Of a stretch of DNA of 32,000 bases, positions 2,599 through 29,487 are shown piece by piece; the stretch's first letter is position 1, and every line of letters starts with the position of its first letter. Under the pieces are notes generated by a model. It was not told the origin of the DNA. It saw only the letters and a list, made by a program, of their open reading frames with translations, and searched no databases. Location of the stretch: positions 1,050,001 through 1,082,000 of the forward strand of contig NZ_CP027570.1 in NCBI RefSeq assembly GCF_003010495.1, read 5' to 3'. The stretch comes from Megasphaera elsdenii DSM 20460 (GTDB taxonomy: Bacteria > Bacillota > Negativicutes > Veillonellales > Megasphaeraceae). Position numbers and translations under genes: made by a program.

Positions 2599-4496
2599 GT
2601 GCGCCCGGCATGGGCGCACTCTAATGGGTGAAAGTCCCTAAGCCGCCCGGTAGCGGGAAGGCTATAGCCAGAACCAAGGGTGTCCATCGTGAGATGGAAT
2701 CTGAAGGAAGGTCGAGGCAAATCTCTGGTCTGACGAACAGAAATCACATAAGGCTAGTCATGGGGATAAGGCCGCCTAACAGGTTGAAGTCCCATAGCTA
2801 CACGGAACCATGAATAGTAGATGTGGCAGACACATGGAGAGAAAGAGTGCGTTCTTACCCGGGGAGGCCTCATGGACATGATGGTGCCATATAGATTGGA
2901 CATCATGGTTGAAATAAGATTTATCATGAGGAGTCAGCCGAGGCCATAGTACCTTATGGGCTATAGACCATGAGGAAAGGGCCGAATCCTAGGAGATGTT
3001 AGTTAATGAAAGTAACCAATCATGGAATGAAAGACAGAAAACTTCATCAAGAAGGCTGTCCACAAAAAGAGGTTGCGGAACAACCGGGATATGTGGAAGC
3101 GTCTGCCCATGCGAGGATTGCTGAACACAACGACATCATTGCAAGCTTGCCAGCGGACAGTCTGTTGAAGCAGATTTTATCACGAGACAACTTAAATGGT
3201 GCCTATAAGAAGGTAAAGTCTAATCGAGGAACCGGCGGGGTCGACAGGATGAGTGTAGATGAACTTCTACCCTACCTGCGGGAACATCGCCTGGACCTCC
3301 TTCAGCAAATACGGAATGGGAAATATAAGCCCCAGCCAGTCCGTCGGGTTGAAATACCCAAAGAGGAAAAAGGGAAATTCCGGAAATTAGGAATCCCTAC
3401 GGTCGTAGACCGCATGATACAACAGGCGATTACGCAGGTTCTTGTGCCTATCTACGAGCCACAGTTTTCAGATAGCAGTTTCGGGTTCCGTCCCAAACGG
3501 GGCGCCCACGATGCGTTGAAACAATGCCAGGCCTATGCAGATGAGGGCTATGTCTACGTCGTAGACATGGACTTGGAGAAATTTTTCGACAATGTCTGCC
3601 AAAGCAAATTGATAGAAGTTCTGTCAAGGAGCGTAAAAGACGGCCGGGTCATCTCGCTGATACACCAATATCTCCATGCTGGTGTTATCCGGCATGGGAT
3701 GTTCGAACGAAGTGAACAGGGGGTTCCCCAAGGAGGGCCATTGAGTCCGCTCTTGAGTAACATCATGCTGAATGAGCTGGATAAGGAGCTGGAACGGCGC
3801 GGACATAAATTTGTCCGCTATGCAGATGACTGCATGATACTCTGCAAAAGCAGAAGAAGTGCCGAAAGGACCTTGGAAAGCATCACTCGATATATTGAGA
3901 AGAAATTATTTCTCAAGGTGAATCGAAATAAGACGCACGTAGCCCACATCCGCTATGTTAAATATCTGGGATATGGCTTCTACCGAAAGAATGGAAAATG
4001 CCGACTCCGGGTGCATCCGAAATCCATTACTAAGATGAAAGACCGTTTGCGGTTTATATTGAAACGAAGCAATGGAAAAGGAAACGAAGTGAGAGCCCTT
4101 CTATTGAAACGATTCATAAAGGGATGGGTGAATTACTTTAAACTAGCGAATATGAAGGAACTGCTAATTCAAATTGACAGATGGATTCGACGCAAAATAC
4201 GAACCATATACTGGAAACAATGGAAGAAGGTACGGACGAAACACCGGATGATAAGCCAATACGGCGCGCCCAAGTGGGTAGTGTTGGAAATGGCTAACTG
4301 CCGAAAAGGTCCGTGGCGAGCAGCGGCAATGCTGAACTCAGTTCTTACGAATAAAGAAATAGCCCGCCTTGGCTACATAACCATGACGAGCTATTACAAG
4401 CAAGTATGCGAAAACTAGGAAACCGCCGTGTACCGAACGGTACGCACGGTGGTGTGAGAGGTCGGGATTTCTACTCAGAAATCCCTCCTACTCGAT
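2599..4496 (+). mobile_element. Group II intron, bacterial class C-like (~1.9 kb)
   Basis: The 5' end is GTGCG at 2599. The RT/maturase ORF lies inside. Domain V is at 4422-4453 (ccgccgtg tacc gaac ggta CG cacggtgg, CGC triad). Domain VI is at 4455-4494 with bulged A4490. The 3' end ...gAT is at 4496. Insertion is just downstream of a terminator hairpin. Confidence 0.85.
3006..4418 (+). CDS. ltrA: Group II intron reverse transcriptase/maturase (no endonuclease domain evident)
   Basis: 470 aa. RT motifs include GVPQGGPLSPLLSN and FVRYADDCMILC (YADD). A C-terminal maturase X-like region is present (GWVNYF...). Confidence 0.92.
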   Translation: MKVTNHGMKDRKLHQEGCPQKEVAEQPGYVEASAHARIAEHNDIIASLPADSLLKQILSRDNLNGAYKKVKSNRGTGGVDRMSVDELLPYLREHRLDLLQQIRNGKYKPQPVRRVEIPKEEKGKFRKLGIPTVVDRMIQQAITQVLVPIYEPQFSDSSFGFRPKRGAHDALKQCQAYADEGYVYVVDMDLEKFFDNVCQSKLIEVLSRSVKDGRVISLIHQYLHAGVIRHGMFERSEQGVPQGGPLSPLLSNIMLNELDKELERRGHKFVRYADDCMILCKSRRSAERTLESITRYIEKKLFLKVNRNKTHVAHIRYVKYLGYGFYRKNGKCRLRVHPKSITKMKDRLRFILKRSNGKGNEVRALLLKRFIKGWVNYFKLANMKELLIQIDRWIRRKIRTIYWKQWKKVRTKHRMISQYGAPKWVVLEMANCRKGPWRAAAMLNSVLTNKEIARLGYITMTSYYKQVCEN

Positions 4497-4627
4497 TTCG
4501 TTTGGCGTGGTCCGTTTGCCGAAAATTCTCGCAGCTGCAAGAAAAATGATATCTGCATACAGCAGATTGTTAAAAATTTTAAACCTTCACGGCAAACGAG
4601 CCACGACCCACGGCAAACGACGTGAAC
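4497..4627. repeat. Palindromic heptamer-array element with a long spacer
   Basis: The left arm tcgtttg gcgtggt ccgtttg ccgaaaa (4498-4525) is complementary to the right arm ttcacgg caaacga gccacga cccacgg caaacga cgtgaac (4586-4627). The spacer contains ttaaaaattttaaacc. Confidence 0.7.
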
Positions 4628-4630
4628 CAA

Positions 4631-4676
4631 GGGATTGTGCATGATGGCAAAAGCCTTCGTGTGACAATCCCTTTTT
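4631..4676 (+). terminator. Terminator-like hairpin plus T-tract followed by GTAG
   Basis: Stem gggattgt/acaatccc with a large loop, then T5 and gtag. The context ccctttttgtag resembles the pta site ccccttttgtag. Confidence 0.35.
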
Positions 4677-4685
4677 GTAGTGAAA

Positions 4686-4734
4686 GGCGCCCCCTACAGC
4701 GATGAACGATGAACGACCAACGACGAACGATCAT
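4686..4734 (-). repeat. Heptamer array (minus strand: tcgttcg tcgttgg tcgttca tcgttca) plus CTGTAGGGGGCGCC
   Basis: Read on the minus strand, the array starts at the TGA stop of the 4731-5159 gene. It is homologous in layout and unit to 340-390. Confidence 0.8.
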
Positions 4735-5292: not shown

Positions 5293-5386
5293 TTTGTTTG
5301 ATGTTTGACGTTTGATGTTTGGGAATACGGTTTTTTAATTTAAAACCATTTACATCAAACATCAAACTTTTAACTTCAAACGTAAA
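5293..5386. repeat. Palindromic heptamer-array element
   Basis: Left arm tttgttt gatgttt gacgttt gatgttt. Core ggttttttaatttaaaacc. Right arm acatcaa acatcaa actttta acttcaa acgtaaa. A 16-bp stem with 1 mismatch forms next to the core. Confidence 0.8.
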
Positions 5387-5399
5387 AGGATGTGTGATT

Positions 5400-6788
5400 A
5401 TGCATGCAGTAAAGACATATGATGTCATTATCATCGGGGCTGGTCCGGCCGGTATTTTTACGGCCCTGGAACTGGCCGATAAAGGATTTAAGATTCTCAT
5501 GGTCGAAAAGGGGCAGGACATACGGGAGCGCATTGCGACGAGCCTGAACAAGAAGGCCCTGCCCAAAGACCGGATGCGCAATGTCGTCTGTGGCTGGGGT
5601 GGTGCCGGTGCCTTCAGTGACGGAAAATTGACGCTGACGACGGAATACGGCGGCAACCTCGACGACTACATGTCCAAGGCCGACCTCATGGACAAGATTC
5701 GTTACGTCGATGACGTCTACTGCCGTTTCGGCGGTGCCGGCCGTAAAGTCTATGGCGATGAAAACAAAGACCACATCCGCGACATCAAGCGCAAAGCTGC
5801 CGCAGCGGACCTGCGTTTCATCCCGGCCCGTATCCGCCATCTCGGGACCGACGTCAACGCTCAGATCCTGACTAACATGCGCGATTTCCTGGAAGGGAAA
5901 GTCGACATCATGGCCGATACGGCTGTAGACCATATCGTGGAAGAGAAAGGCGAAATCAAAGGCGTCCTCATCGATGACCAGTTCTATGCCTGCCGTTATC
6001 TGGTCAGTGCTCCCGGCCGGGAAGGGTCGGAATGGTTTGTCCATGAAGTCGAAAAGATGGGCCTCAAACTGACGTCCAATGCCGTCGACATCGGCGTCCG
6101 CGTAGAAATGCCGGCAGAAGTCCTGGAAACGATTACCGACGTCGTCTATGAATCGAAGCTCATCTATTTCAGCAAATCCTTTGACGACCGGATCCGCACG
6201 TTCTGCATGAATCCCTATGGCTTCGTCGTCGAAGAGAATAACGATGGCCTGCTCACGGTCAACGGCCACAGTTATGCCCACAAGAAGAGTGAAAATACGA
6301 ACTTCGCCATCCTCGTCTCCAAGAAGTTCACGGAACCCTTCCATGAACCGATTAAATACGGGAAGTACATCGCCAATCTGGCCAACATCCTCGGCGGCGG
6401 CGTCATCGTCCAGCGCCTGGGCGACTTCCTCGATGGCCGCCGGTCGACGCCGGAACGGATCCAGCGGGGCCTCGTCCGGCCGACCATGCCCGATGCGACA
6501 CCAGGTGATTTATCGCTGGTCCTGCCGTACCGCCATATGCTGGACATCAAGGAAATGCTGGAAGCCCTCGATGCCGTCGCTCCTGGGGCCAACTCGCGCC
6601 ATACCTTGTTGTACGGCGTAGAAGCCAAGTTCTATTCCAACCGCCTGGAATTGAGCCACGTCCTGGAAACGAAGATTCCCAATTTCTTTGCCATCGGCGA
6701 CGGCGCCGGCATCACCCGCGGCCTGGTACAGGCGTCGGCAGCAGGTGTAACTGTCGGTCAGGAAATTTTGCGGCGGGAAGAAACGTAA
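5400..6788 (+). CDS. FAD-dependent protein (uncharacterised NAD(FAD)-utilising dehydrogenase family)
   Basis: A Rossmann motif, YDVIIIGAGPAGIFTALEL, lies at the N-terminus when starting at ATG 5400 (RBS aagga 8 nt upstream). The track's 5319 start only adds translated repeat sequence. Confidence 0.8.
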   Translation: MHAVKTYDVIIIGAGPAGIFTALELADKGFKILMVEKGQDIRERIATSLNKKALPKDRMRNVVCGWGGAGAFSDGKLTLTTEYGGNLDDYMSKADLMDKIRYVDDVYCRFGGAGRKVYGDENKDHIRDIKRKAAAADLRFIPARIRHLGTDVNAQILTNMRDFLEGKVDIMADTAVDHIVEEKGEIKGVLIDDQFYACRYLVSAPGREGSEWFVHEVEKMGLKLTSNAVDIGVRVEMPAEVLETITDVVYESKLIYFSKSFDDRIRTFCMNPYGFVVEENNDGLLTVNGHSYAHKKSENTNFAILVSKKFTEPFHEPIKYGKYIANLANILGGGVIVQRLGDFLDGRRSTPERIQRGLVRPTMPDATPGDLSLVLPYRHMLDIKEMLEALDAVAPGANSRHTLLYGVEAKFYSNRLELSHVLETKIPNFFAIGDGAGITRGLVQASAAGVTVGQEILRREET

Positions 6789-9012: not shown

Positions 9013-9095
9013 TCGTGGCTAGTGGCTAGTAGTTCGTGGCTCGTGGTTAAATTTAAAACCATCCGCTAACCACTAACTGCTAGCCCCTAACCACT
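9013..9095. repeat. Palindromic heptamer-array element
   Basis: Left arm tcgtggc tagtggc tagtagt tcgtggc tcgtggt. Core taaatttaaaa. Right arm ccatccg ctaacca ctaactg ctagccc ctaacca (about 70-75% complementary, unit by unit). Confidence 0.8.
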
Positions 9096-9096
9096 T

Positions 9097-9130
9097 AAAA
9101 GGGCTTGTCGCACGTGCGACAAGCCCTTTT
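9097..9130. terminator. Bidirectional rho-independent terminator (serves the 9141-9857 gene)
   Basis: aaaa, then the perfect 26-nt palindrome gggcttgtcgcacgtgcgacaagccc, then tttt. Confidence 0.85.
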
Positions 9131-9140
9131 GAAAGGAGGC

Positions 9141-9857
9141 CTATTCTTCTATTTCTGTATGGATGACGGAGCCGTTGGTGGCGTCTACTAAGACGTCGTA
9201 GCGGACGGAACCCGATGTGACGCGGACTTTATACATGGGGTGGAAAGCGCGTTGCGGCATAGCGCCCTGCGGCATAGCGCCCTGCGGCGGCTGGCCTTTC
9301 ATGTCAGGCTGGCCCTGGGGCGGTGCCATGGGGGGGACGCCTTGTGTATCGGCCTGGCCATTCGGAGCGGCTTTGGCCGTAGCCCCGGCAGCGGCATCGG
9401 TTTTTTCTTCACCCGGACGGCCGGGCTTCATGCCTTCCGGTCCCTGCGGGCGTCCTGCTTCATGGTCTTTGCGGTCTCTCTCTTTTACTTTGTCTTTGCG
9501 GTCGCCTTTGCGGCCGTCTTTAGGACCGTGCTTGGCGCTATTCATATCGAAGAGGGCCACTTCTTTGAAATCCAGGTCGCTTTCGTCCTTGCCGATGGCC
9601 TGGGCTGCGGCGGCACAGGCTTGGTCTTCGCTGATGAGGGAGACGTTGCGTTGTTCGGCCTGGGCTTTGGTCATCTGGGCCATGGCTTCGACCCGTTCGG
9701 CGTGACGGGCTGTGTGCTGGCGGTACAGGTAGTAGTGGCCGCCTGCCGTCGCCAGTACGCAGACGACGCAGAAAGCAGCGGCGATTTTGGCATTGCGGGC
9801 CGTGCGGACTTTATGTTTGATCGAAATGAGTGTATCTTGCCATTTTTCCTGGGTCAT
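9141..9857 (-). CDS. Membrane-anchored PepSY-like protein with a low-complexity Pro/Gly/Lys-rich linker
   Basis: 238 aa. N-terminal TM (IAAAFCVVCVLATAGG). The C-terminus YKVRVTSGSVRYDVLVDATNGSVIH is PepSY-like. RBS aggagg. Confidence 0.65.
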   Translation of the reverse strand: MTQEKWQDTLISIKHKVRTARNAKIAAAFCVVCVLATAGGHYYLYRQHTARHAERVEAMAQMTKAQAEQRNVSLISEDQACAAAAQAIGKDESDLDFKEVALFDMNSAKHGPKDGRKGDRKDKVKERDRKDHEAGRPQGPEGMKPGRPGEEKTDAAAGATAKAAPNGQADTQGVPPMAPPQGQPDMKGQPPQGAMPQGAMPQRAFHPMYKVRVTSGSVRYDVLVDATNGSVIHTEIEE

Positions 9858-9971
9858 GATAAATTCCTCCTGTCTTCAATCACTGATTCTTGACTACGAA
9901 GACAGTATAAGGGATAAATCTAAAATCGAGCTAAACCAGGCCGTAAGAATTACATAAATGTTGTATAATGA

Positions 9972-10050
9972 GTTTGTAGTTTGTAGTTTGTAGTTTGTAG
10001 TTTGTAGTTTGTAGTTTGCAGGCTGTAGGGGCGCCCATGTGGGGCGCCCG
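9972..10050 (+). repeat. Heptamer array (gtttgta x6 perfect, then gtttgca, ggctgta) fused to a GGGGCGCCC hairpin
   Basis: 49 nt with exact period 7, then ctgtaggggcgccc-atgt-ggggcgccc. Confidence 0.9.
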
Positions 10051-10094
10051 CCGAGTCCGCCATGTTTTATATAATAGAGAGTGAGGTATCGATC

Positions 10095-11132
10095 ATGAAC
10101 GATGAACGTTTGAAATTGACTCAAATGGCGTCCTGCTCCGGTTGAGGCGCTAAGTTAGGGCCAGGGACACTGGCTCAATTGTTGGACGGGCTTCCAACAC
10201 ATAAAGATGACCGCCTCCTCGTTGGCTATGATAAGAGCGACGACGCGTCGGTCTACCAGGTGAGCGATGATCTGGCTGTCGTCCAAACGGTCGATTTCTT
10301 TCCGCCTATCGTCGACGATCCTTATTTATTCGGTCAGATTGCAGCGGCCAATGCCCTGAGCGACGTCTACGCCATGGGGGCCGAGGCGAAACTGGCCATG
10401 AACATCATGTGCGTCAATTTGTCCATGGGCCGCGAAGCCATCCGGGCTATCCTCGAAGGGGGATACCAAAAGGCCTATGAAGGCGGGGTCATCATCACCG
10501 GCGGCCATACCATCGAAGATAAGGAGCCGAAGTACGGCCTGTCCGTGACCGGTTTCGTTCATCCGCAGAAATTATTGCGCAATTCGTCGGCCCGGCCTGG
10601 CGACGTCCTCATCCTGACCAAGCCCTTAGGCGTGGGTATCTTGATGACAGCTGCCCAGGGCGATTTCGTCGAAGCGCCGCTCCTGCAGCAGCTCTATGAC
10701 CAGATGGCCCAGCTCAATAAGACGGCCCGGGACATCATGGTCCGCTATGACGTCCACAGCTGTACCGACGTTACGGGCTTCGGCCTGTTGGGCCATGCCT
10801 GTGAAATGGCCGATGGCAGCGGGACGACGATTCATTTTCAAGGCGATGCCATTCCCTATCATAAAGAGGCCCTGGACATGGCGGCCATGGGGCTGATCCC
10901 GGCCGGAGCGTACCGCAACCGTGATTTCGTCGCCGGCCGGATTGATACGGGCAGCGCCGATAAGCGCTTCATGGATGTCCTCTATGACCCACAGACTTCG
11001 GGCGGCCTGCTCATCGCTGTCGCCGAAAAAGACGCAGCGAAGCTGGAACGGGCCCTGAAAGACACGATTCCCTGTGCGGCCGTCGTCGGCTATGTGACCG
11101 GGCGGGAGAACTACTCCATCGTCATCGATTGA
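10095..11132 (+). CDS. selD: Selenide, water dikinase (selenophosphate synthetase), selenocysteine-containing form
   Basis: ATG 10095 gives MNDERLKLTQMASCSG-U(TGA 10143-10145)-GAKLGPGTLAQLL, continuing in frame into the 10179 ORF. The SGUGAK position corresponds to the catalytic Cys/Sec of SelD. The rest (DDASVY...VDFF...DDPYLFGQIAAANALSDVYAMG) is canonical SelD. Confidence 0.9.
10158..10176 (+). promoter_or_regulatory. Candidate bacterial SECIS hairpin for the selD UGA
   Basis: Stem gggccag/ctggctc (one G-U pair) with apical loop ggaca. The loop starts 20 nt after the UGA. Confidence 0.5.
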
Positions 11133-12357: not shown

Positions 12358-13386
12358 ATGGCATGGAAAATTTTATTACCTCAGGAAATCATGGAAGAAG
12401 GAGCGCAGTTGTTGAAAGATGCTGGCCATACACTGATCCGTGGCAGAGGTTTTGAAACAGCGGACGTCTTGGCAGATATGAAGGAATATAAACCGGATGC
12501 GATGATCGTACGTATTACCCCGATTACCCGCGAAGTCATTGAAGCGAATCCGAATCTGAAAGTTATTGCCCGTCACGGTGCCGGCTTTGATGCATTGGAT
12601 GTCAAAGCTTGCCATGATAATGGGGTACAGACTTTATATGCTCCTGTAGCGAACAGTACCTCTGTTGCTGAAACAGCCATCATGCTTATGTTTGAATGTA
12701 GCCGCAATGTCTTGAAACTGCGTAAGACCTGGGTTCAAGACTATTATAAAGCAAAACTGAAGATTCACAAAACAACTCTTAATGGCAAGACCTTAGGCAT
12801 CATTGGTTGTGGCAATATCGGCAGCCGTGTAGCAAAGCGGGCTTTAGGGCTGGAAATGAACGTCTTGGCATACGACCCGTATAAACGGGCAGCTGAATTT
12901 CCGGAAGGTGTCGAAGTCGTACGCGACTTGAACCGGATTTTTAAGGAAAGTGATTATGTATCTGTGCATACGCCGAATACGCCGCTTACCCGTCAGATGA
13001 TTAACAAGGAAACACTGGCTATGATGAAATCTTCAGCCTTCCTGATTAACACGGCTCGTGGCGCTTGTGTCAATGAAATGGATTTGTATCAGGCCTGCAA
13101 AAATGGAATTATCGCAGGCGCCGGACTCGACGCTATTGCCCATGAACCAGTTGATCCTAACAATCCACTGCTGACATTGGATAATGTCATCATTTATCCG
13201 CACATCGGCGGTAACTCTGTGGAAGCGGCCCACCGGGCTTCGTACTTCTCTGCGATGGGCATCGAAGAAGTATATGAAGGCAAAGAACCGACCTGGCCGA
13301 TTCATGATATTGATTATACGACAGCACCGACATACATGGATATCCGTGTTCCCGATAAGAAACCGGTCGGCATGTTTGATTTTTAA
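12358..13386 (+). CDS. D-isomer-specific 2-hydroxyacid dehydrogenase, copy 1
   Basis: 342 aa. GIIGCGNIGSRVA NAD-binding motif. Catalytic Arg/Glu/His context NTARG ... AHEP ... YPHIGG. Confidence 0.88.
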   Translation: MAWKILLPQEIMEEGAQLLKDAGHTLIRGRGFETADVLADMKEYKPDAMIVRITPITREVIEANPNLKVIARHGAGFDALDVKACHDNGVQTLYAPVANSTSVAETAIMLMFECSRNVLKLRKTWVQDYYKAKLKIHKTTLNGKTLGIIGCGNIGSRVAKRALGLEMNVLAYDPYKRAAEFPEGVEVVRDLNRIFKESDYVSVHTPNTPLTRQMINKETLAMMKSSAFLINTARGACVNEMDLYQACKNGIIAGAGLDAIAHEPVDPNNPLLTLDNVIIYPHIGGNSVEAAHRASYFSAMGIEEVYEGKEPTWPIHDIDYTTAPTYMDIRVPDKKPVGMFDF

Positions 13387-17000: not shown

Positions 17001-18029
17001 ATGGCATGGAAAATTTTATTACCTCAGGAAATCATGGAAGAAGGAGCGCAGTTGTTGAAAGATGCTGGCCATACACTGATCCGTGGCAGAGGTTTTGAAA
17101 CAGCGGACGTCTTGGCAGATATGAAGGAATATAAACCGGATGCGATGATCGTACGTATTACCCCGATTACCCGCGAAGTCATTGAAGCGAATCCGAATCT
17201 GAAAGTTATTGCCCGTCACGGTGCCGGCTTTGATGCATTGGATGTCAAAGCTTGCCATGATAATGGGGTACAGACTTTATATGCTCCTGTAGCGAACAGT
17301 ACCTCTGTTGCTGAAACAGCCATCATGCTTATGTTTGAATGTAGCCGCAATGTCTTGAAACTGCGTAAGACCTGGGTTCAAGACTATTATAAAGCAAAAC
17401 TGAAGATTCACAAAACAACTCTTAATGGCAAGACCTTAGGCATCATTGGTTGTGGCAATATCGGCAGCCGTGTAGCAAAGCGGGCTTTAGGGCTGGAAAT
17501 GAACGTCTTGGCATACGACCCGTATAAACGGGCAGCTGAATTTCCGGAAGGTGTCGAAGTCGTACGCGACTTGAACCGGATTTTTAAGGAAAGTGATTAT
17601 GTATCTGTGCATACGCCGAATACGCCGCTTACCCGTCAGATGATTAACAAGGAAACACTGGCTATGATGAAATCTTCAGCCTTCCTGATTAACACGGCTC
17701 GTGGCGCTTGTGTCAATGAAATGGATTTGTATCAGGCCTGCAAAAATGGAATTATCGCAGGCGCCGGACTCGACGCTATTGCCCATGAACCAGTTGATCC
17801 TAACAATCCACTGCTGACACTGGATAATGTCATCATTTATCCGCACATCGGCGGTAACTCTGTGGAAGCGGCCCACCGGGCTTCGTACTTCTCTGCGATG
17901 GGCATCGAAGAAGTATATGAAGGCAAAGAACCGACCTGGCCGATTCATGATATTGATTATACGACAGCACCGACATACACGGATGTCCGTGTTCCTGATA
18001 AGAAACCGGTCGGCATGTTTGATTTTTAA
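17001..18029 (+). CDS. D-isomer-specific 2-hydroxyacid dehydrogenase, copy 2
   Basis: 342 aa. Differs from copy 1 only at M327T and I329V (TYMDIR vs TYTDVR). Confidence 0.88.
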   Translation: MAWKILLPQEIMEEGAQLLKDAGHTLIRGRGFETADVLADMKEYKPDAMIVRITPITREVIEANPNLKVIARHGAGFDALDVKACHDNGVQTLYAPVANSTSVAETAIMLMFECSRNVLKLRKTWVQDYYKAKLKIHKTTLNGKTLGIIGCGNIGSRVAKRALGLEMNVLAYDPYKRAAEFPEGVEVVRDLNRIFKESDYVSVHTPNTPLTRQMINKETLAMMKSSAFLINTARGACVNEMDLYQACKNGIIAGAGLDAIAHEPVDPNNPLLTLDNVIIYPHIGGNSVEAAHRASYFSAMGIEEVYEGKEPTWPIHDIDYTTAPTYTDVRVPDKKPVGMFDF

Positions 18030-21060: not shown

Positions 21061-21095
21061 TGTAGGGGCTCGCACGTGGCGAGCCCGCCCCTACA
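21061..21095 (+). repeat. Nested GC hairpin TGTAGGGG...CCCCTACA
   Basis: tgtagggg ctcgc acgtg gcgag cc cgcccctaca. Member of the CTGTAGGGG module family. Confidence 0.75.
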
Positions 21096-21096
21096 G

Positions 21097-21180: not shown

Positions 21181-21247
21181 GGGCCGCCCTTTGGGCGGCC
21201 CCTACGAACCACGAGCCACGAGCCACGAGCCACGGACCACGGACCAC
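21181..21247 (-). repeat. GC hairpin plus heptamer array (plus strand: gaaccac gagccac x3 ggaccac x2)
   Basis: gggccgccc-tttg-ggcggccc ctac, then 6 units of period 7. On the minus strand this reads gtggNNc x6 followed by gtaggggccgccc. Confidence 0.85.
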
Positions 21248-26753: not shown

Positions 26754-26820
26754 GCTTTATTGTTTGTAGAAGAGGAATTTAAATTAAAAAACTTCACTAC
26801 AAACTGTAAACTTAATACTC
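26754..26820. repeat. Palindromic heptamer-array element (short)
   Basis: Left arm gctttat tgtttgt agaagag. Core gaatttaaattaaaaaac. Right arm ttcacta caaactg taaactt aatactc. About 16/20 arm complementarity next to the core. Confidence 0.65.
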
Positions 26821-26855
26821 AAAAAGGCGCTGTCTTTATGCGACAGCGCCTTTTT
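26821..26855. terminator. Bidirectional terminator between selA and the LacI-type gene
   Basis: A5, 9-bp stem ggcgctgtc/gacagcgcc, T5. Confidence 0.85.
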
Positions 26856-27949: not shown

Positions 27950-28210
27950 GGTCAACTACTCCCGACTAAAGTCGGGAACTTGTAAGTCGGAACTACATAG
28001 GTACTAACGGCATCAAAAGACGTCTCCCTAAATCCGCCTACATCATCGGGTGGCTGACAACACCCGCTTTGCTAAGGAGTTTACTCCAAAGCAGTTGTTA
28101 TTCTTTTGTAACGAGGATGGTTATCTCCAGAAATCCACATAGTTCCGAGGAGCTGAATATTCATAGCTCCGATACGGTCATCGTTAGATCTGTAACCACA
28201 CTGGCAACGA
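27950..28210 (-). ncRNA. Predicted omega (RE-derived) guide RNA of TnpB, approximate
   Basis: By analogy with characterised TnpB systems, the RNA spans the 3' end of tnpB and the right end. Structured segments are visible (gggtg ttgtcagcc acccg; cccgactttagtcggg). Confidence 0.45.
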
Positions 28211-29307
28211 TATAAGTGTTTGTGATGGTCACGATTTTCCTTGTGGATAGTACCGCATTTGGGACAACGTTGAGAGGTATACTTAGCAGATACCTTCAGA
28301 ACTTCGGAACGATTTTCATGAGCTTTATAAGTCAAGAATTGTTCCAACTGATAGAACGCCCAGCTGCGCAGGTCGCAATTTTGTTTAGCAGTTTTTGAAA
28401 GATGGGACTCTTCGAAGCTAACACCGGTCAGATCTTCAAGCACAAACAGCGTATCTTTGCCGTATTTTTCAACGAGTGTCTTAGAAATCTGATGGTTTAC
28501 ATCAGACATCCAACGGTTCTCTCGTCCAGAAATGGCTTTGAGCCTACGCTTTGCTGATTTTGTACCTTTAGACTGGAGCTGACGGCGGACTTCCTGAAAT
28601 TTATGGCGTTTAGTAGCCATCTTCTTACCAGAGACGAATTCAGTTTTGCCCTGTTCGTCGTAACTAACAGTAAGAAAACGTAATCCGCGGTCAATACCGA
28701 CAACGTGACGGACGTTTTCTTTCTGAAAATCTTCGACAGCTTGGGTTACGGGAATATGGAGATACCATAACCCTTTGAGTTCGACCAGTTTTGCTGTTCC
28801 AAGGTCATAAGCGCCATCAAGGTATTCAGCGAAATGTTCGCCCTCAAAAGTGCATTTGGTTCTTTTTCCGAGTGTATTGATAGATAGGATTTGACCATCA
28901 TCCACGAAACTGTAATCTCGGTTACGGACCAAATCAGCTTGCGGACGAGTAAAGAATATCGGCTTCCAAAGCCATTCCCATGTCTTGGCGATGCGTTGCC
29001 AGTTGCCATTCTCATCCTTATATCTGTAAGGATTTTGGAAGAGCTGTTGTTTTACCGTCTTATATCTGGCAATCGTCGTCTTGATAGAAGACTGGGCCAG
29101 CTGCGATTTCAGACCGAACTGGCTGCGCAGGTCCCTGTACAGTTCTCTGTTAAGACTTTGGTAGGCCATGTTAAATCGGTTGTCGAAGATGTACTGCGAC
29201 ACGAAGTTACAAGCCTGACGGTATTGTTCCGTCATCTGACGGAACAGAAACTCTTGTTCAGAAGTAGCATGTATACGAAGTTTTATCGTTTTAGTTAGGT
29301 TAGACAC
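28081..29307 (-). CDS. tnpB: RNA-guided endonuclease TnpB (OrfB_IS605 plus Zn ribbon)
   Basis: 408 aa, GTG start with RBS aaggaaggtgag. RuvC residues are in context: VVGIDRGLR (D), LFVLEDLTG (E), NDDRIGAMNI (D). Zn ribbon CPKCG...CQCG. Confidence 0.9.
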   Translation of the reverse strand: MSNLTKTIKLRIHATSEQEFLFRQMTEQYRQACNFVSQYIFDNRFNMAYQSLNRELYRDLRSQFGLKSQLAQSSIKTTIARYKTVKQQLFQNPYRYKDENGNWQRIAKTWEWLWKPIFFTRPQADLVRNRDYSFVDDGQILSINTLGKRTKCTFEGEHFAEYLDGAYDLGTAKLVELKGLWYLHIPVTQAVEDFQKENVRHVVGIDRGLRFLTVSYDEQGKTEFVSGKKMATKRHKFQEVRRQLQSKGTKSAKRRLKAISGRENRWMSDVNHQISKTLVEKYGKDTLFVLEDLTGVSFEESHLSKTAKQNCDLRSWAFYQLEQFLTYKAHENRSEVLKVSAKYTSQRCPKCGTIHKENRDHHKHLYRCQCGYRSNDDRIGAMNIQLLGTMWISGDNHPRYKRITTALE

Positions 29308-29487
29308 TATTTCTCACCTTCCTTTCTAAATATATATTACTTCATCAAAATTATTATAGAACTATTTTTACTAAAAATCTATTGTGTTTTATTGAAAGGA
29401 GGGGAGGTGCGGCTCCTCTCATGACTAAAGTCACGAGTCTCCACCGCACCATGAAGATGAACAAGTATTCTTCATTTTTAGTGTCAT

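Follow-up and report, generated by a model that had tools for sequence, protein, structure and literature searches.

Short tandemly repeated repetitive (STRR) sequences made of heptanucleotides were reportedly described in cyanobacteria by Mazel et al. in 1990. An excess of 7-nt tandem repeats has been noted since that year (as STRRs) and again in 2007 (as long simple sequence repeats [SSRs]), and to our knowledge neither its mechanism nor its function has been established. Xanthomonas and Nostoc carry G-rich heptameric SSRs with the units GGGAATC and GGGGAYT, respectively, convergent inverted pairs included (Rehm et al. 2015, PMC4692102); Xanthomonas has 70 to 75 convergent inverted pairs per genome, able to form stem-loops or cruciforms (PMC4692102), and polymerase slippage has been proposed as the origin of the 7-nt repeat excess (Mrazek 2007, as cited in PMC4692102 and PMC4679880). 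Cyanobacterial STRRs have been used for fingerprinting (PMC5088731), direct repeats of the heptamer TAACTGA are found in Beggiatoaceae, Cyanobacteria, and Bacteroidetes (MacGregor 2015, PMC4679880), and a GTAG tag on a GC-rich hairpin is the signature of repetitive extragenic palindromic (REP) elements (PMC3733652, PMC2817692). Here we analyze a 32,000-nt stretch of the genome of Megasphaera elsdenii DSM 20460, hereafter the window, and in particular an element at positions 9013 to 9096 in which two heptamer arrays face inward on a small AT-rich palindrome. It is one of four such copies in the window, each named below by its first position. Complementarity between the two arms is a trait of some copies of this element, those in the window included, and not a rule of the family. 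A literature search found no description of heptamer or intergenic repeats in Megasphaera.

Heptamer arrays act as microsatellites

The window encodes a tRNA cluster, ptb, a group II intron and the associated reverse transcriptase, a two-component system, selD, selA, selB, and an IS605-type tnpB. Its histidine kinase is matched at every residue on the DSM 20460 chromosome (HE576794.1, 2.47 Mb) and on many metagenomic contigs of M. elsdenii. In a scan for tandem periods of 3 to 11 nt (threshold, 20/28 per position; Tandem Repeats Finder was also run), period 7 passed at 130 window positions, whereas periods 3 to 6 and 8 to 11 passed at none. The ten arrays in these 32 kb are all intergenic (10/10), lying between long open reading frames (ORFs) and Pfam-supported genes. 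A unit model built from 65 M. elsdenii-clade arrays, oriented and phased together, has the consensus nT[A/C]GT[G/T][G/T], with T at 71%, G at 89%, and T at 73% in its three conserved positions; its frequent units are TTCGTGG, CTAGTGG, CTCGTGG, GTAGTTT, TTAGTGG, and TTAGGGG. The differing heptamers of the four palindromic copies are variants of this single unit. An earlier reading of the window, made from its sequence only, had proposed that arm heptamers differ from copy to copy and are free in sequence; the variants do differ between copies, but a shared consensus leaves them far from free.

The arrays gain and lose whole 7-nt units. A perfect (AGTTTGT)6.9 array of the same unit family (9971 to 10018, + strand), followed by a GTAG REP-like motif at 10023 to 10052, sits between a TATAAT box and selD; in nine near-identical strains this (TAGTTTG)n array has n = 5, 7, 8, 9, or at least 16 between identical flanks, and it could modulate selD expression. 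The scaffold gap of one assembly falls within it, an instance of the hazard that such arrays fragment assemblies, and the arrays, this one included, are ready-made variable-number tandem repeat markers for typing M. elsdenii strains. A second hypervariable array (GTTGTTA/TAGTGGC; 1147 to 1173, + strand) follows directly on the terminator of the tRNA cluster, with 4 units in DSM 20460 and about 22 in locus L013; together with its orthologues (L013, 189 to 350; L094, 9608 to 9674), it mixes TAGTGGC, TAGGGGC, TAGTTGT, and TAGGGGT. Orthologues of the 9013 copy have left/right unit numbers of 4/4, 5/5, 6/7, 6/6.5, and 6/2. A rule that the unit numbers of the two arms covary, which we considered, held for five orthologues and was broken by the 6/2 copy (L197).

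Solo arrays also occur, after stop codons (341 to 377 and 4700 to 4731), after a terminator (1147 to 1173), and in 5′ leaders (9971 to 10018 and 21204 to 21247). In the first group, a GTAG-tagged GC-rich REP-like motif, GGCGCCCCCTACAG, is joined to a CGATGAA array of 4.6 units (4686 to 4731, − strand) that starts just past the stop codon of a 142-aa gene. We rejected a general rule by which every array would run 5′ to 3′ toward a hairpin: relative to the consensus strand, the stronger hairpins (terminators) are on the 5′ side in 25/48 cases and on the 3′ side in only 10/48, and the rule is confined to REP-type and core contexts. The leader array at 21204 to 21247 (− strand; ACGAGCC/ACGGACC in + strand letters) lies between a GTAG REP-like hairpin (21181 to 21205) and the ribosome-binding site of an aminotransferase gene. 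In this leader (protein MYYFDNAAT…), an array about 20 nt upstream of the ribosome-binding site is also present in M. hexanoica (L031, 14728 to 14773) and in a second species (L036, 14735 to 14782), both otherwise without arrays; the unit changes (CATCAAA versus ACGAGCC) while the array stays at its site.

Anatomy of the palindromic copies

The 9013 copy is one uninterrupted 7-nt register of twelve slots, comprising five left units, a 14-nt AT core, and five right units. Its left arm (9013 to 9047, consensus on the + strand) consists of TCGTGGC, TAGTGGC, TAGTAGT, TCGTGGC, and TCGTGGT. The AT-rich palindromic core (9045 to 9060, no strand assigned) is GGTTAAATTTAAAACC, against a family consensus of TGGTTTTAAATTTAAAACCA. 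The right arm (9062 to 9096, consensus on the − strand) consists of TAGCGGA, TAGTGGT, TAGCAGT, TAGGGGC, and AAGTGGT, read 5′ to 3′ on the − strand from the core outward, and is nearly identical to that of a dispersed family known from no fewer than 49 metagenomic sites. Directly adjoining it is a bidirectional intrinsic terminator hairpin, module T1 (9097 to 9130, no strand assigned), with perfect 17-nt arms (AAAAGGGCTTGTCGCAC/GTGCGACAAGCCCTTTT), a GC-rich stem, and a T-run, which is the terminator of a 238-aa gene (9141 to 9857, − strand). At the other end, the left arm overlaps a −35-like TAGCCA (− strand) 17 nt from the TATAAT of a histidine kinase/response regulator operon promoter. Placed between this terminator and this promoter, the copy is expected to lie mostly outside transcripts. 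Its own hairpin lacks the T-run of an intrinsic terminator, the letters after it being TTAAAAGG (+ strand) and AATCACTC (− strand); none of the four window copies has a T-run of its own. Hairpin potential was scored with RNA parameters on both strands, each copy against 200 shuffles, and for the 9013 copy z is −5.6 and −6.2, with 0/200 shuffles folding as well. Both this copy and the 5293 copy are 100% identical across nine near-identical strains.

The 4497 copy adjoins the group II intron without a gap at the intron's 3′ end; its left arm (4497 to 4521, + strand) reads TTCGTTTG, GCGTGGT, CCGTTTG, and CCG. Its interior (4522 to 4589, no strand assigned) is long, with small hairpins of its own and the AT core GTTAAAAATTTTAAACC at 4569 to 4585, and its right arm (4590 to 4628, − strand) reads as TCGTTTG, CCGTGGG, TCGTGGC, TCGTTTG, and CCGTGAA in reverse complement. 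A terminator-like hairpin with a long conserved loop, module T2 (4629 to 4676, no strand assigned), follows and also precedes many metagenomic copies. Hairpin potential is again high (z of −4.3 and −4.2; 0/200 shuffles as good). The 5293 copy has a left arm of GAYGTTT/AYGTTTG units (5293 to 5322, + strand), the AT core GGTTTTTTAATTTAAAACC (5329 to 5347, no strand assigned), and a right arm of CAAACAT units (5348 to 5389, − strand) that runs into the ribosome-binding site of a gene for a flavin adenine dinucleotide (FAD) protein (ATG at 5400). It lies in the leader or promoter region of that gene, its outer stem is able to pair with the ribosome-binding site, and its hairpin potential is likewise high (z of −5.0 and −6.9; 0/200 shuffles as good). 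The fourth copy (26756 to 26818, no strand assigned) is weak, with short TGTTTGT/TAGTTTG-type arms around AATTTAAATTAAAAAAC; z is −2.1 and −1.1 and shuffles did as well in 7 and 27 of 200 cases. It abuts a bidirectional terminator (26821 to 26855, no strand assigned) between selA and a convergent lacI-family gene and, like the 4497 copy, lies between convergent genes beside terminators.

All four copies are where the sequence-only reading had placed them, and the hairpins at 9097, 4629, and 26821 bear out its statement that three of them adjoin terminators. It further stated that each right arm approximates the reverse complement of the left; the 9013, 4497, and 5293 copies fold strongly (z of −4.2 to −6.9), and the arms of the weak 26754 copy are 70% complementary. 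No Rfam family matched the copies; the only matches were generic hairpins (miRNA precursors) at 17 to 29 bits against thresholds of 48 to 117.

Arm complementarity reflects shared unit types

The complementarity had been read as copy-level covariation, that is, pairing maintained while the arm sequence is free, and at the level of whole arms the signal exceeds chance. When left and right arms of the four window copies are assigned to one another, the true pairing is the best of 24 permutations (59 versus 47 for the next best). Across 13 distinct copies from M. elsdenii-clade loci, mean complementarity is 14.9 within copies versus 10.1 between copies, and 0/20,000 permutations reach the observed total. 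In DSM 20460, the heptamer variant is common to the two arms of a copy and changes from one copy to another.

Shuffling the order of units in one arm separates unit type from position. For the 9013 copy the observed score is 18 versus 16.1 ± 1.2 after shuffling, with 22% of shuffles reaching 18; the corresponding values are 18 versus 17.1 for the 5293 copy and 13 versus 13.0 for the 4497 copy, and only 1/11 copies falls below 0.05. Because shuffling barely lowers complementarity, the match stems from shared unit type and not from position-by-position pairing. The 9013 orthologues (L010, L013, L093, L094) retain the architecture, with left arrays of the TCGTGGC type, the core, and right arrays of the CTAACCC type, but most of the pairing is gone: folding is at about the level of shuffles with DNA parameters (z of +1.2 to −2.9) and at z of −1.5 to −3.9 with RNA parameters.

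A larger sample came from a metagenome scan with the core/right-arm junction AAATTTAAANCCATCCGCTAAC, which is independent of the left arm and hit at least 120 contigs. The matches listed include 108 copies with complete flanks, which group by outer flank into at least 49 sites. At these sites the mean arm score is 8.1 versus a shuffle null of 6.4 ± 1.4; among the matches listed, 40/49 sites score 10 or less, their left arms being noncomplementary, and 1/49 scores 16 or more. The commonest left arm among these matches is of the TAGTTTG type, mismatched to the TAGTKGY-type right arm, and several of the listed copies have no left array at all. Eleven further sites, not of the scanned type, were found by the core pattern alone; five are self-complementary and six chimeric, and mean complementarity is 12.3 within copies versus 11.7 between them. 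Intra- versus inter-copy complementarity, the comparison on which the covariation claim was to stand, favors it in the 13 clade copies but not in the 11 core-only sites. The claim that pairing is maintained fails on the unit-order, orthologue, junction-scan, and core-only results, which leaves the earlier reading supported only in part. Where arm complementarity is present, it is explained by shared unit type and not by individually kept base pairs. The case carries a general caution: arms that match within copies and differ between them can come from shared repeat units without structural covariation.

Relatives, turnover, and dispersal

A genome scan with the FAD-protein gene (5400 to 6788) returned 80 loci. 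Loci of the M. elsdenii clade, together with a subset of those from Dialister, hold 2 to 11 period-7 arrays per 10 kb; most other loci of Megasphaera (M. massiliensis, M. cerevisiae, and M. hominis among them) and of Dialister hold 0 to 1 each. Inverted same-unit pairs around short cores are also present in Dialister. The AT-rich palindrome is confined to M. elsdenii-clade loci in about 1.4 Mb of related genomes surveyed, where it is always flanked by inward-facing arrays. The array-rich Dialister species (L040, L045 to L049, L054, L056 to L058, L060, L062, L070, and L071) use units such as TGGTGAC, TAGTGAC, GGGATTA, GAGTTAG, and TTGTTGG, often followed by GGCGGCGC…GCGCCGC hairpins and sometimes arranged as inverted pairs.

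Between close relatives, the modules (array, AT core, two terminator-like hairpins, and GTAG-tagged GC hairpins) are reshuffled. At the site upstream of the FAD gene, the counterpart of the 5293 palindrome of DSM 20460 is, in L010, L011, L013, and L093, a REP hairpin accompanied by CGCAG and CCACGAG arrays. The site downstream of ptb takes four forms: the 4497 palindrome, a palindrome with TCGTTCA arms, a palindrome with TAGTTTG arms, and a remnant. Such orthologous-site comparisons show replacements and not clean insertions.

One composite of about 130 nt occurs nearly identically at many distinct sites with unrelated flanks. In an alignment of twelve copies from different sites, similarity starts in the inner part of the left arm, takes in the core and right arm, and ends with a conserved terminator, GGGCTTGTCGnnnnnCGACAAGCCC and its T-run; the left arm is cut at different heptamers between copies, and no target-site duplication is discernible. 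Ahead of the left arm there is often a further terminator-like module, one that also occurs at 4629 to 4676 in the window. By a crude, ORF-based classing of both neighboring genes, the 39 composite sites among the matches listed comprise 13 convergent, 18 tandem (9 in each direction), and 3 divergent sites, with the rest unclassed, which places the family at gene 3′ ends without strand preference. The element is usually butted against a bidirectional intrinsic terminator in this position, and this terminator-coupled organization is a mosaic like that of bacterial interspersed mosaic elements (BIMEs). A single terminator family, YTGTCR...YGACAR, was considered and set aside, as 3 strict window matches versus 0.8 expected are only suggestive; the composite's own terminator is clearly conserved.

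Proposed origin of the matched arms

We place about even confidence in the reading that the M. elsdenii clade has its own, lineage-specific intergenic mosaic repeat with matched arms of mutational origin, the 9013 element being one copy. Arrays would grow by strand slippage in 7-nt steps, and fold-back or template switching across the palindromic core would copy one arm into the other. The resulting same-type, inward-facing arms would then drift independently, which would leave their unit order unmirrored. Crossovers in the conserved core could create chimeric copies, at least one of which, with its terminator attached, would have spread to dozens of sites. The element may form an extruded hairpin or cruciform, and strengthening or insulation of the neighboring terminator may be an incidental effect, pairing itself probably not being the selected property. 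Several points weigh against this account. A Fisher combination, made by hand, of the 11 unit-order tests gives p of ∼0.02, which leaves room for a weak mirror-order signal. The G/U-rich strand of the 9013 orthologues still folds moderately as RNA (z of −3.3 to −3.9). Same-type arms are found in 6/6 palindromic copies from DSM 20460-like sequence, which selection for pairing would explain equally well. The near identity of the composite at its many sites points to an active mobilization mechanism outside the proposed model. Finally, we found no reason for the 7-nt step, and slippage and template switching are inferred from patterns.

Such mobilization is the substance of a rather unlikely alternative, in which the element is nonautonomous and mobilized by a transposase acting in trans, like a transposable element of the miniature inverted-repeat type (MITE) or a REP doublet forming a hairpin (REPIN), with arm types as subfamilies and arms as terminal inverted repeats. 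Beyond the dispersed composite, it would account for orthologous sites that differ in the presence or absence of an element, for copies at gene 3′ ends as in REP/BIME elements, and for the REP-type GTAG-tagged GC hairpins beside many arrays, REPs being linked to REP-associated tyrosine transposases (RAYTs; PMC2817692, PMC3733652). It sits poorly with the variable left end of the composite and the lack of a target-site duplication or fixed termini in the copies compared, with freely varying unit number, and with the arms of the most abundant subfamily, which are not mutual inverted repeats. No cognate transposase was identified in the window, which holds no Y1 transposase. Selection for a hairpin in RNA or a cruciform in DNA, serving as a back-up terminator, insulator, or 3′-end stabilizer whose pairing is kept while its sequence drifts, appears quite unlikely. 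The strong folding of three window copies, their same-type arms, the moderate RNA folding kept in orthologues, and the position of copies against terminators at gene 3′ ends count in its favor. However, complementarity is nearly equal after unit-order shuffling, orthologues fold at about shuffle level with DNA parameters, most right-arm-sharing sites among the matches listed have a noncomplementary left arm or none, and the 9013 copy lies past a perfect terminator and over the −35 of the next promoter, without a T-run of its own.

Two further explanations invoke a dedicated factor. Arrays and palindromic nuclei (AT core, GTAG hairpins, and terminators) might be made or targeted by a DNA-processing or heptad-reading system restricted to certain lineages, which we consider very unlikely. 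If it existed, such a system would write 7-nt units beside hairpins and copy them across palindromes, would explain why arrays abound in two separate Veillonellales lineages, the M. elsdenii clade and part of Dialister, and are missing from sister species, and would make M. elsdenii a tractable model for the STRR and heptamer-repeat puzzle. Least probable in our estimation is that the arrays are bound by a protein whose reading of heptads, on DNA or RNA, is cooperative, with the palindromic core as nucleation point, much as the ω repressor binds direct and inverted 7-bp heptads. The three conserved unit positions, the inward-facing arrays on either side of the palindrome, and the persistence of arrays at one orthologous 5′ untranslated site despite a change of unit type would fit such a protein, and a heptamer-binding protein has been postulated for Nostoc (10.1101/2022.06.06.494920). 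Yet near-identical strains differ freely in unit number, orthologous sites exchange or lose whole elements while the neighboring genes are unchanged, unit conservation is explicable by common descent of dispersed copies, and no candidate protein was identified.

Group II intron and other window features

Bacterial class C introns insert just past terminator hairpins, and the position of the window's group II intron resembles that behavior. The intron (2599 to 4496, GTGCG... to ...CTACTCGAT; reverse transcriptase/maturase ORF at 3006 to 4418) lies exactly between the ptb terminator with TTTTGTAG (2557 to 2598) and the first heptamer of the 4497 element, and other M. elsdenii strains have the empty site …CCCCTTTTGTAG|TTCGTTTGG…. 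A second intron copy (L095, 1403 to 2939; HE576794.1, about 8 kb to the left of the window) has an identical 3′ end followed by an array of five GGCTAGT units. The intron may home to terminator/array junctions.

A TnpB of the IS605 family (28081 to 29307, − strand), with OrfB_IS605 and Cas12f1-like TNB domains, lacks a TnpA beside it. The hairpins on its flanks (about 27960 to 27980 and 29420 to 29440) are unrelated to the heptamer elements, and we rejected a link between the two on the basis of these ends. Two 2-hydroxyacid dehydrogenase genes (12358 to 13386 and 17001 to 18029) form direct repeats of 99.6% identity; L003 and L007 have a single copy and lack the intervening genes (Na/sulfate symporter, amidohydrolase, and RraA-like), in what looks like a duplication-mediated insertion/deletion polymorphism. 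The selD gene (10096 to 11132) has an in-frame TGA within 10131 to 10151 (…SCSG-TGA-GA…) that presumably encodes selenocysteine, and it is split or shortened by gene callers, being 317 aa in some records and 345 aa in others.

Comparison with known systems

Among known elements, the family comes nearest to the Xanthomonas inverted heptamer SSR pairs and to cyanobacterial STRRs, here combined with a REP/BIME-like mosaic. Like heptanucleotide SSRs and STRRs generally, the M. elsdenii arrays have a 7-nt head-to-tail period, intergenic placement, polymorphic unit number, and lineage-restricted abundance. As in Xanthomonas and Nostoc, they are perfect or degenerate, period 7 is overrepresented relative to other periods, and length varies between close relatives while the site is kept. 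The 9013, 5293, and 4497 copies are inverted heptamer SSR pairs, and chimeric pairs of different units also exist. In contrast to those systems, M. elsdenii units are not G4 prone as a rule, several unit variants coexist, the host is a Negativicute, and a conserved AT-rich palindrome is the point of convergence of the pairs, which are coupled to terminator modules. The units themselves are dissimilar: 74 to 75% of all 7-mers score at least as well as the Xanthomonas and Nostoc units against the M. elsdenii unit model, to which only a few Dialister units (CTAGTGA and TTGGTTG) and the Helicobacter pylori unit GTGATTA are similar. We also rejected a cross-phylum heptamer grammar, n-T-N-G-K-G-R, which on visual inspection had appeared to unite Megasphaera, Dialister, Nostoc, and Xanthomonas, as 33 to 88% of all 7-mers match or beat the Xanthomonas, Nostoc, and Beggiatoa units against the same model.

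With REP, BIME, and REPIN sequences of Proteobacteria, the family shares high-copy extragenic palindromic modules, location at gene 3′ ends, and variable mosaics (PMC2817692, PMC3733652). Unlike REP/BIME elements, the 9013-type core is AT rich and untagged, with heptamer-array arms in place of a GTAG-tagged GC stem, and unlike REPINs, arm sequence varies between copies and the arms are often not inverted repeats. The REP tag is carried instead by separate neighboring motifs (378 to 406, 1272 to 1298, 4686 to 4699, 10023 to 10052, 21061 to 21096, and 21181 to 21205). These REP-like GTAG/CTAC-tagged GC-rich hairpins, for example GTAGGGGCCGCCCAAAGGGCGGCCC, thus occur in a Negativicute. The TAACTGA repeats are likewise abundant intergenic heptamer arrays of patchy phylogenetic distribution, with proposed protein-binding roles; they differ in having one fixed unit, in being direct (169 sets versus 1 inverted), and in lying just upstream of start codons and not at terminators (PMC4679880).

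The ω repressor of inc18 plasmids, a ribbon-helix-helix protein, binds 7-bp heptads, direct and inverted, of one fixed sequence in a few plasmid promoters. Its operators may be compared with the present arrays in 7-bp period and orientation only; here the sites are many and chromosomal and the units varied. Cyanobacterial STRRs likewise are intergenic heptamer arrays with several unit types, abundant within restricted lineages and so hypervariable that they can serve to type strains; they belong to a different phylum and have different units, and the descriptions consulted mention neither a palindromic AT core nor terminator coupling. New here are the host lineage, the conserved AT-rich palindromic core, the coexisting unit types, and the coupling to terminator and GTAG-hairpin modules. 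The phenomenon is thereby placed in a gut and rumen Negativicute, in arrays organized around small palindromes and terminators as a BIME-like mosaic, and it can be followed there through contrasts within and between species, with array-rich and array-free sister species in two genera.

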